DNA of 64,000 nucleotides from Gemmatimonadota bacterium (GTDB taxonomy: Bacteria > Gemmatimonadota > Gemmatimonadetes > Gemmatimonadales > GWC2-71-9). A program made the translations under genes and the position numbers. Numbering within the stretch: position 1 is the first letter of the stretch; the number at the start of each line of letters is the position of its first letter. This document shows positions 27,179 to 27,646 of this stretch, piece after piece. The DNA lies in NCBI GenBank assembly GCA_039586875.1, contig JBDHJO010000001.1, forward strand, positions 3,044 to 67,043. Reading direction: 5' to 3'. The notes under the pieces are model-generated. The model was given only the letters and a program-made list of their open reading frames with translations. It was not told where the DNA came from and searched no databases.

Positions 27179-27646
27179 CTACCGCTCCGCAAACACCGTC
27201 GTCCTGCCCTCTTTGTCGAACGTCAGGACCTGATACGCCTCCGGCGTCCGTCCCGGCATCTCCATACCCGGAGACCCGATCGGCATCCCAGGCACAGCCA
27301 AACCTGCGACATCCGGCCGTTCTTTGAGAAGCCGTCGGATGTCCTCAGCCGGTACGTGCCCCTCGATGATGTAGCCATCTACGATCGCCGTGTGACATCC
27401 CTCCAGTGCTGCCGTCACGCCGTGCTGGCGCTTGACCGGCTCCATATCAGCCACGTCGACCGATTCCACTGCAAAACCATTCTCGTGTAGGTGCCCGACC
27501 CACGCTTTACAGCACCCTCAGGTGGGGCTCTTGTACACCGTCACCGAGTGCTGGTCCTGCAAAGTTGCGGCGCGGACCCCACCCGCAACCGCCAACCCGG
27601 CGGCCACCAGGGTGCCGGCAGCCACGAGCCCAAGACGTATGCGCAT
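27179..27646 (-). CDS. CopG/DUF411 periplasmic metal-binding protein interrupted by one in-frame TGA (27518-27520): selenocysteine candidate or nonsense pseudogene
   Basis: - ATG at 27646 with GGAGGTG 5 nt upstream.
- Signal peptide MRIRLGLVAAGTLVAAGLAVAGG.
- ...VTVYKSPT-TGA-GCCKAWVGHLHENGF...CHTAIVDGYIIEGHVPAEDIRRLL...GLAVPGMPIGSPGME.
- The two track ORFs 27518..27757 and 27179..27469 are in the same frame. Confidence 0.6.

Follow-up and report, generated by a model that had tools for sequence, protein, structure and literature searches.

We examined a 64,000-nucleotide stretch of Gemmatimonadota contig JBDHJO010000001.1 (assembly GCA_039586875.1, forward-strand positions 3,044 to 67,043; the whole stretch is called the window here) that carries a gene of the CopG/DUF411 family interrupted by an in-frame TGA, probably a selenocysteine (Sec) codon. 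The gene lies on the reverse strand, and its coordinates and those of the features within and around it are collected in Table 1. An earlier note on this DNA had read one continuous frame from the ATG at 27646 to the TAG at 27179 with a single break, and had offered a Sec codon or a fresh nonsense mutation as the explanation. Direct translation reproduced the frame, and the sole internal stop of its 155 codons is the TGA, which falls between ...VTVYKSPT and GCCKAWVGHLHENGF...

A CopG-like gene with an internal TGA

For family searches, Cys was put in place of the internal TGA. The Pfam DUF411 model (PF04214) matched from the first to the last of its 48 positions with 97.4 bits (gathering cut-off, 27; E = 3.9e-28), and the Pfam Glutaredoxin model matched residues 35 to 71 with 24.3 bits (cut-off, 22.9); no model of NCBIfam release 20 matched beyond a weak glutaredoxin-like one. 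Residues 34 to 154 aligned with chain residues 4 to 122 of Pseudomonas aeruginosa CopG (6WIS_A, E = 1.4e-35), and the TGA aligned exactly with the first Cys of the CGCC of that protein. The assignment to DUF411/CopG, the placement of the TGA at the first Cys of the CxCC motif, and an intact downstream frame with the family motifs, all claimed earlier from the letters alone, are borne out by these matches. The first motif Cys and the G, C, C, and W that go with it were invariant in an alignment with 40 full-length homologues. The window protein has the second Cys (TGC) and the third (TGT) with TGA at position 1; since Sec is a chemical analogue of Cys, the motif would be complete only if the UGA were decoded as Sec. 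Read directly, U43-G-C-C46 is also a U-x-x-C, with the TGA at the first CxxC-type position of a thioredoxin/glutaredoxin-like domain.

The GGAGGTG reported ahead of the ATG is present, at a measured distance of 4 nt rather than the 5 nt first given. By inspection, the N terminus (MRIR, a hydrophobic stretch, and VRA/A) reads as a putative signal peptide, and hydrophobic N termini of like kind precede the motif in homologues.

Using the split gene products of public annotation, we reached six further contigs of the same lineage (L001 to L006; four NCBI metagenome-assembled genomes, one ENA contig, and one JGI contig), all with the identical in-frame TGA. No second stop or frameshift occurs across the seven assemblies. 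One of the six, L004, is a true relative and not the same population, with ∼10 to 13% DNA divergence (neighborhood ∼87% identical). Its gene differs from that of the window at 49 of 462 coding positions, with 13 amino acid changes on both sides of the TGA and an intact frame. The ratio of nonsynonymous to synonymous substitution rates (dN/dS) between the two was 0.077 over the 112 codons after the TGA and 0.36 in the upstream signal-peptide part. Purifying selection thus acts on both sides of the TGA. In all seven contigs examined from this lineage (NCBI, JGI, and ENA), public annotation breaks the gene into two products, one of 42 amino acids (aa) and one of 88 or 96 aa, which suggests that Sec forms are probably undercounted and routinely misannotated.

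Table 1. Positions of the features discussed in the text (counted from the first letter of the window; ORF, open reading frame)
Feature	Position	Strand	Remarks
Full-length gene, CopG/DUF411 precursor	27179..27646	−	ATG 27646, TGA as codon 43, TAG 27181..27179; 155 codons
Shine-Dalgarno-like GGAGGTG	27651..27657	−	4 nt ahead of ATG; read directly from sequence
Signal-peptide-like N terminus MRIRLGLVAAGTLVAAGLAVAGGVRA	27569..27646	−	Residues 1-26, by inspection only; would imply periplasmic export
In-frame UGA, proposed Sec codon	27518..27520	−	Opposite first Cys of CxCC; kept in L001 to L006 and at least 113 genomes
U-G-C-C motif, TGA GGG TGC TGT	27509..27520	−	Counterpart of CopG CxCC; includes thioredoxin-type UxxC
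Pfam DUF411 core LEGCHTAIVDGYIIEGHVPAEDIRRLLKERPDVAGLAVPGMPIGSPGM	27263..27406	−	Residues 81-128
Upper hairpin like a selenocysteine insertion sequence (SECIS), GUGGGU-CGGGC-ACCUAC	27487..27503	−	Apical loop 20 nt past UGA, G at loop position 2; identical in L004
Whole stem-loop	27467..27514	−	Lower stem 27514..27504/27477..27467, internal loop, upper hairpin; wholly within coding sequence
42-aa ORF ending at the TGA	27518..27646	−	Separate gene per public callers; judged annotation artifact
96-aa ORF, GTG start	27179..27469	−	Public callers' substitute for full gene; judged annotation artifact
Terminator-like hairpin AAGGCCCCUGC-GUCG-GCGGGGGCCUU, then UGCGUUU	27130..27155	−	From fold
YwiC-like membrane protein	26313-27164	−	Downstream of TGA gene
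GAF-HisKA_3 kinase	24488-26266	−	Downstream of TGA gene
NreC-like LuxR-type regulator	23829-24488	−	Downstream of TGA gene
Cysteine-desulfurase-like protein	30221-31540	−	2.6 kb upstream of TGA gene
HisKA/receiver/Ser/Thr kinase ORF	8012-9979	−	655 aa
Signaling ORFs (Ser/Thr and histidine kinases)	4540-6765, 27732-30140, 10289-13231, 12931-16005	−

TGA and cysteine forms of the family and the downstream hairpin

One genome for each species was searched with the back-translated pattern V-Y-K-x-x-x-TGA-x-C-C-x-x-W, which gave at least 119 matches, against ∼17 expected by chance (our own estimate, assuming equal base frequencies). Of the 119 matches listed, 113 were intact DUF411 frames with a hydrophobic N terminus and all downstream family motifs. 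Carriers among the matches listed included Vicinamibacterales and other Acidobacteriota, Gemmatimonadota, Rokubacteria/Methylomirabilota, deltaproteobacteria, Caldilineae/Anaerolineae (Chloroflexi), Burkholderiales, Verrucomicrobiia, and Tectomicrobia. The TGA form is present, for example, on the complete Vicinamibacterales chromosomes OY759970.1, OZ220736.1, OY760734.1, and OZ253576.1 and in the metagenome-assembled genomes GCA_039585515.1 and GCA_039584935.1. Metagenome contigs were scanned with the same pattern, TGH replacing TGA, and taken as an unbiased sample; the true family members there comprised 12 TGA, 63 TGC, and 31 TGT forms, or ∼11% TGA. All three codons occur among family members, and TGA is found in all seven assemblies of the window lineage.

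Over the 17 codons past the TGA, column entropy in 112 distinct TGA sequences was 0.67, 0.69, and 1.37 at codon positions 1, 2, and 3, and the H, L, G, F, and V residues that lie outside the search pattern were 92 to 99% conserved. This third-position wobble, together with the conserved residues, argues that translation continues in frame through the TGA. A rough neighbor-joining tree interleaves the TGA and Cys forms, with 33 clades made up of TGA forms alone and no fewer than 26 changes of state, and places the window sequence in a Gemmatimonadota clade of nine.

Several variants stood out in these collections. A 7.0-Mb Vicinamibacterales contig (CBDBMZ010000003.1) carries two distinct TGA-containing DUF411 paralogues (L054:4698-4736 and L081:1196-1234). 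In some TGA forms (L042, L049, L053, L068, and L218), the residue after the TGA is R, D, or E, giving URCC, UDCC, or UECC; the deltaproteobacterial UDCC and UECC forms among them (L049, L053, L068, and L218) have a longer insert following the first helix. A 230-aa protein on a JGI contig (P0001) contains tandem DUF411 domains of the Cys form, the first copy being cut short where the contig stops.

For the 60 nt that begin with the UGA, the fold of lowest energy comprises an upper hairpin, an asymmetric internal loop, and an 11-bp lower stem; the energy of the whole stem-loop was −17.1 kcal/mol in the test against published criteria and −15.8 kcal/mol in a separate fold. The published model of bacterial SECIS elements (bSECIS), the consensus of Zhang and Gladyshev, specifies an apical loop of 3 to 9 nt with a G at one of its first two positions, an upper stem of 4 to 16 bp, a UGA-to-loop distance of 16 to 37 nt, and an energy of ≤−7.5 kcal/mol (PMC13188914, Fig. 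2). With a 6-bp stem, the loop CGGGC, a spacing of 20 nt, and −17.1 kcal/mol, the window element lies within the model on all four criteria, so the folding and SECIS check suggested earlier did find a candidate downstream of the UGA. All four criteria were satisfied by 61 to 75% of TGA forms versus 7 to 10% of Cys forms.

We also measured, for each sequence, the best uninterrupted stem whose loop starts 20 to 25 nt after the first base of the codon. Stems of at least 7 bp were present in 79% of 112 genome TGA forms and 75% of 12 metagenome TGA forms, compared with 4% of 94 TGC/TGT forms and 2% of 41 GC-matched Cys forms. The difference in stem length between TGA and Cys forms gave Mann-Whitney p values of 1.4e-24 (all) and 5e-15 (GC matched), shared ancestry not being fully corrected. 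When each Cys form was paired with its nearest TGA relative (≥55% identity), the stems averaged 4.5 versus 7.4 bp (Wilcoxon p = 3.8e-10). It is this comparison between Sec and Cys forms that is decisive; the window element alone is weak evidence.

Stem sequences differ by lineage, with two variable codons before the Trp pairing with two after the His-Leu (for example, GGCGCGUGGAU/AUCUGCGCGCC in L036 and GCGCCUGGA/UCCAGGCGC in L050). The register of the hairpin also shifts between lineages (i+j = 52, 48, 54, and others), and the apical loops of TGA forms are often GGU or GGUC... A different stem, GGUGC (27516..27512) with GCACC (27494..27490), had been put forward in the earlier note. It can be drawn, and it was 77% paired over 123 TGA homologues; two of its six pairs were unpaired in 60 to 67% of them, L004 has an A.C mismatch, and 329 of 500 shuffles paired equally well. 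We rejected it as a functional element on this lack of covariation: its pairing is fully explained by the conserved amino acids, and the supported structure is the hairpin at 27503..27487 with its lower stem.

Probable selenocysteine and the competing readings

Based on the TGA conserved across phyla and a hairpin restricted, at the frequencies given above, to TGA forms, the Sec candidate proposed earlier is supported. We conclude that the gene very probably encodes a full-length exported CopG-like (DUF411) protein of thioredoxin fold in which UGA codon 43 is recoded to Sec, giving UxCC in place of CxCC. From sequence, we infer that the UGA is read as Sec rather than as another residue, that SelB is involved, that the product is exported, and that its selenium may bind copper. 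By analogy with known systems, the hairpin within the coding sequence, its apical loop ∼20 nt past the UGA, would recruit SelB carrying Sec-tRNA(Sec) to the ribosome, and translation would then proceed in frame across the UGA. The precursor would be exported and its signal peptide removed, and in the mature protein a selenolate would replace the first cysteine thiolate, where selenium may tune the redox or metal-binding chemistry of the motif site.

TGA is otherwise a normal stop in the window, as had been stated, and ends 21 of the 33 Pfam-supported ORFs; a global codon reassignment is therefore unlikely. Neither of two screens for further cases was of use: one for other TGA-interrupted window genes, based on G+C content at third codon positions, was non-specific and missed the known case, and a BLAST screen for Sec/Cys pairs over all loci was uninformative, swamped by off-frame matches. 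Sec users on record at the phylum level include Acidobacteria, Chloroflexi, and delta- and betaproteobacteria (PMC1794560). For Gemmatimonadota or Gemmatimonadetes together with selenocysteine, our literature search found no specific record.

A number of observations weigh against decoding as Sec. ARAGORN found no tRNA-Sec in the 64-kb window or in 1.78 Mb of fetched loci, a result that holds for those sequences only; a search of the same 1.78 Mb for the SelD active-site motif gave no match, and none of the ∼43 Pfam-scanned window ORFs was selA, selB, or selD. All carriers found are metagenome-assembled genomes, with no cultured carrier identified. As to the RNA, the upper hairpin in the window has only 6 bp and −5.2 kcal/mol by itself, single-sequence fold z-scores are unremarkable (−1.4 to −1.6), and the 63-nt minimum-energy fold in L004 is a different structure. 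RNAalifold predicted no consensus structure on the ungapped codon alignment, which we attribute to the differing register between lineages, and fixed-register covariation was modest (62.6% paired versus 57.5% shuffled, with 0 of 500 shuffles as high). For these two reasons, hairpins were tested per sequence with Cys-form controls, and those comparisons are themselves only partly corrected for shared ancestry. No Rfam family matched at gathering score, nor at E ≤ 10 on 27380-27600. Most bacterial SECIS elements are mutually dissimilar (PMC13188914); given that they are not conserved in sequence, a missing Rfam match is expected and is a weak criterion. Copper genes are likewise scarce, with none within ∼10 kb of the gene in the window and few near the 125 Sec-type loci (3 have a multicopper oxidase within 4 kb, and 4 have a P-type ATPase).

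The alternatives differ in what they make of the TGA. Under a fresh nonsense mutation, the second explanation in the earlier note, the gene would be a pseudogene whose protein is truncated after 42 residues and whose remainder is decaying, and it is true that, of the ordinary stops in the window, TGA is used most often and that public gene callers take it as one. This is contradicted by the same TGA in seven assemblies and in no fewer than 113 further genomes at species level, drawn from several phyla, twice in one genome, by the downstream dN/dS of 0.077, by the wobble and conserved residues directly past the TGA, and by the lack of a second stop or frameshift in the seven assemblies; we consider it highly improbable. 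A sequencing or assembly error at 27518 has in its favor solely the prior expectation of single-base errors in assembled metagenomes, and its probability is close to negligible given the identical codon in independent NCBI, ENA, and JGI assemblies, in diverged relatives, and in other phyla. The shared TGA and intact frame in relatives thus point to neither mutation nor error. It is also very unlikely that the locus makes two separate products, a 42-aa secreted peptide and an 88- to 96-aa cytoplasmic C-terminal fragment from an internal GTG or ATG. Such a split is just what gene callers predict, and the GTG at 27469 opens a 96-aa ORF; yet the 16 codons from TGA to GTG (GCCKAWVGHLHENGFA) would be left untranslated, although they hold the most conserved motif of the family and show codon periodicity in 112 sequences. 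The solved CopG domain, moreover, spans both parts (residues 34 to 154 align to one chain), the C-terminal piece would have neither the metal-binding motif nor a signal peptide, and the internal start is not conserved, giving 96 or 88 aa by assembly.

A subtler possibility is that the UGA is read through without Sec, a near-cognate or suppressor tRNA inserting Cys, Trp, or Gly while the hairpin merely slows termination. A programmed read-through signal would likewise account for the conserved TGA, the open frame, and the structure downstream, and the Sec genes were seen neither in the window nor in the fetched loci, so read-through of this kind stays a minor rival. Several points argue for Sec instead: the codon always replaces an otherwise invariant metal or redox Cys, the classical Sec/Cys pair; the hairpin agrees with the published bSECIS model in its distance, the size of its loop, and the G within that loop; Sec and Cys forms are intermingled in the tree, a pattern shared with known selenoprotein families; and the groups named above are recorded Sec users at the phylum level (PMC1794560). 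Were Cys inserted, TGC or TGT would serve without loss of yield. We therefore judge read-through without Sec to be unlikely and retain recoding of UGA 43 to Sec as the preferred reading.

Gene neighborhood, copper, and known systems

Downstream of the TGA gene lie, in order, the genes for a YwiC-like membrane protein, a GAF-HisKA_3 kinase, and an NreC-like regulator. This order is kept in L001, L003, and L004 and not in other phyla; L002 stops within the first downstream gene. The terminator-like hairpin noted earlier 3′ of the gene does fold, as a GC-rich stem of 11 bp with a 4-nt loop and a U-rich tail (−26.7 kcal/mol, z = −2.1), and is kept in L004; a consensus terminator scan gave no flag for it. 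The TTG start listed for the YwiC-like ORF overlaps this hairpin; translation of that ORF probably begins at a site farther downstream. Upstream, a Ser/Thr kinase with TPR repeats is followed by the cysteine-desulfurase-like gene (NCBIfam TIGR01976, 436.9 bits), whose product has weak similarity to the selenocysteine lyase SclA and which is not a conserved neighbor in other lineages. Enzymes of the cysteine-desulfurase-like kind can provide selenium for SelD.

Clustering the neighbors of 219 loci revealed no conserved operon partner, no neighbor being common to more than 10 of the 125 Sec loci, and most Sec-form genes sit outside classical copper-resistance operons. Among 94 Cys-type metagenome loci, we counted a multicopper oxidase at 7, a P-type ATPase at 5, cusC at 10, and cusB-cusF at 9; Cys forms thus lie more often beside cusC, cusB-cusF, a multicopper oxidase, or copA, but the taxa differ between the sets, so the contrast with Sec-type loci in copper linkage is only suggestive. 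A Met/His-rich protein of ∼131 aa that contains the motif CCGADCAC and matches no Pfam family is encoded ≤300 nt upstream of 11 Cys-type DUF411 genes (e.g., L195) and is possibly an uncharacterized partner of marine Cys-type CopG.

Elsewhere, the window is rich in signaling genes, including those for a pair of TPR-containing Ser/Thr kinases and for two histidine kinases of very large size with multiple GAF/PAS domains. The two histidine kinase ORFs overlap by ∼300 nt as listed, so the start of 10289-13231 is probably further in than the first listed start codon. Another ORF joins HisKA, response-regulator receiver, and Ser/Thr protein kinase domains, an unusual fusion of two-component and Hanks types. 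A symporter encoded in the window shares ≥90% identity with one labeled Gemmatimonas sp. SG8_28, in keeping with a Gemmatimonadota lineage.

Hausrath et al. in 2020 reportedly described a copper cluster in CopG that is bridged by cysteine sulfurs. By analogy, the selenium of residue 43 could serve as a ligand that bridges a multinuclear copper cluster within the exported protein, a natural copper-selenolate cluster, an idea that we hold tentatively and at somewhat less than even chances. If it is true, a copper-selenolate site would be in use in roughly one-tenth of the CopG family, across abundant soil and sediment phyla (Vicinamibacterales, Gemmatimonadota, Methylomirabilota/Rokubacteria, and Chloroflexi), and selenium availability would be tied to extracytoplasmic copper redox handling; it would also hint at a function of the Sec subgroup other than copper resistance.

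If UGA 43 is recoded as proposed, a widespread family would be added to the prokaryotic selenoproteome, mainly in phyla not deemed rich in selenoproteins. The position ligates a four-copper cluster in the solved homologue and would offer a testable case in which selenium acts, outside the cytoplasm, as a ligand or redox partner of copper. With its many seemingly independent switches between Sec and Cys, the family would be well suited to studying the conditions under which Sec is worth having in place of Cys, and the pattern VYKxxxUxCCxxW with a hairpin at +20 to 25 nt could serve as an annotation diagnostic.

A 2026 catalogue of 119 prokaryotic selenoprotein families and subfamilies has no entry for DUF411, PF04214, CopG, or UxCC (PMC13188914), and our full-text literature searches found no relevant Sec form of DUF411/CopG; a mention in some supplementary table is possible. 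What is new is DUF411 as a selenoprotein, its breadth across soil and sediment phyla, and Sec within a copper-cluster motif; the mechanism of a UGA with a hairpin inside the ORF and the protein family itself are known.

CopG has a thioredoxin-like domain in which CxCC and two adjacent methionines bind a tetranuclear copper cluster, and its proposed role is oxidation of Cu(I) to Cu(II) and copper transfer (PMC7558416). The window protein resembles P. aeruginosa CopG (6WIS/6WJE) in its DUF411 membership, a mature domain alignable over its whole length, the position of the motif, a putatively exported thioredoxin-like domain, and the conserved CHT, EGHVPA, and VPGMPxGSPGME segments. It differs in having TGA as its first Cys codon (UxCC) and in lying outside a cop/cus/pco cluster, and its copper binding is only predicted.

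Among thioredoxin-fold selenoproteins of the UxxC type are Sec-containing thioredoxin, glutaredoxin, DsbA-like, Prx-like, and thiol:disulfide interchange proteins (PMC13188914, Table 1). The window protein would share with them a Sec that takes the place of the N-terminal Cys where a CxxC-type motif opens a thioredoxin/glutaredoxin-like domain, the usual Sec position (PMC13188914), as well as Cys homologues that dominate and interleave and a SECIS-like hairpin within the coding region. Unlike them, it has an extra Cys (UxCC), and DUF411 has a C-terminal metal-binding extension; in the solved CopG, the motif is a multicopper ligand set and not only a dithiol/disulfide couple. Ligand binding, for the most part of metals, is predicted for about 20% of selenoprotein families (PMC13188914). 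Like these metal-linked selenoproteins, the window protein would carry Sec at a position that binds a soft metal in Cys homologues; the folds differ, and none of the cataloged families is DUF411 or has a multinuclear copper cluster. Compared with bacterial SECIS elements of the Escherichia coli fdhF type, the window element lacks similarity to curated RNA families, its stem register varies by lineage, and its binding by SelB is a prediction; it shares with them a stem-loop directly past the UGA within the ORF and all four features of the bSECIS model.

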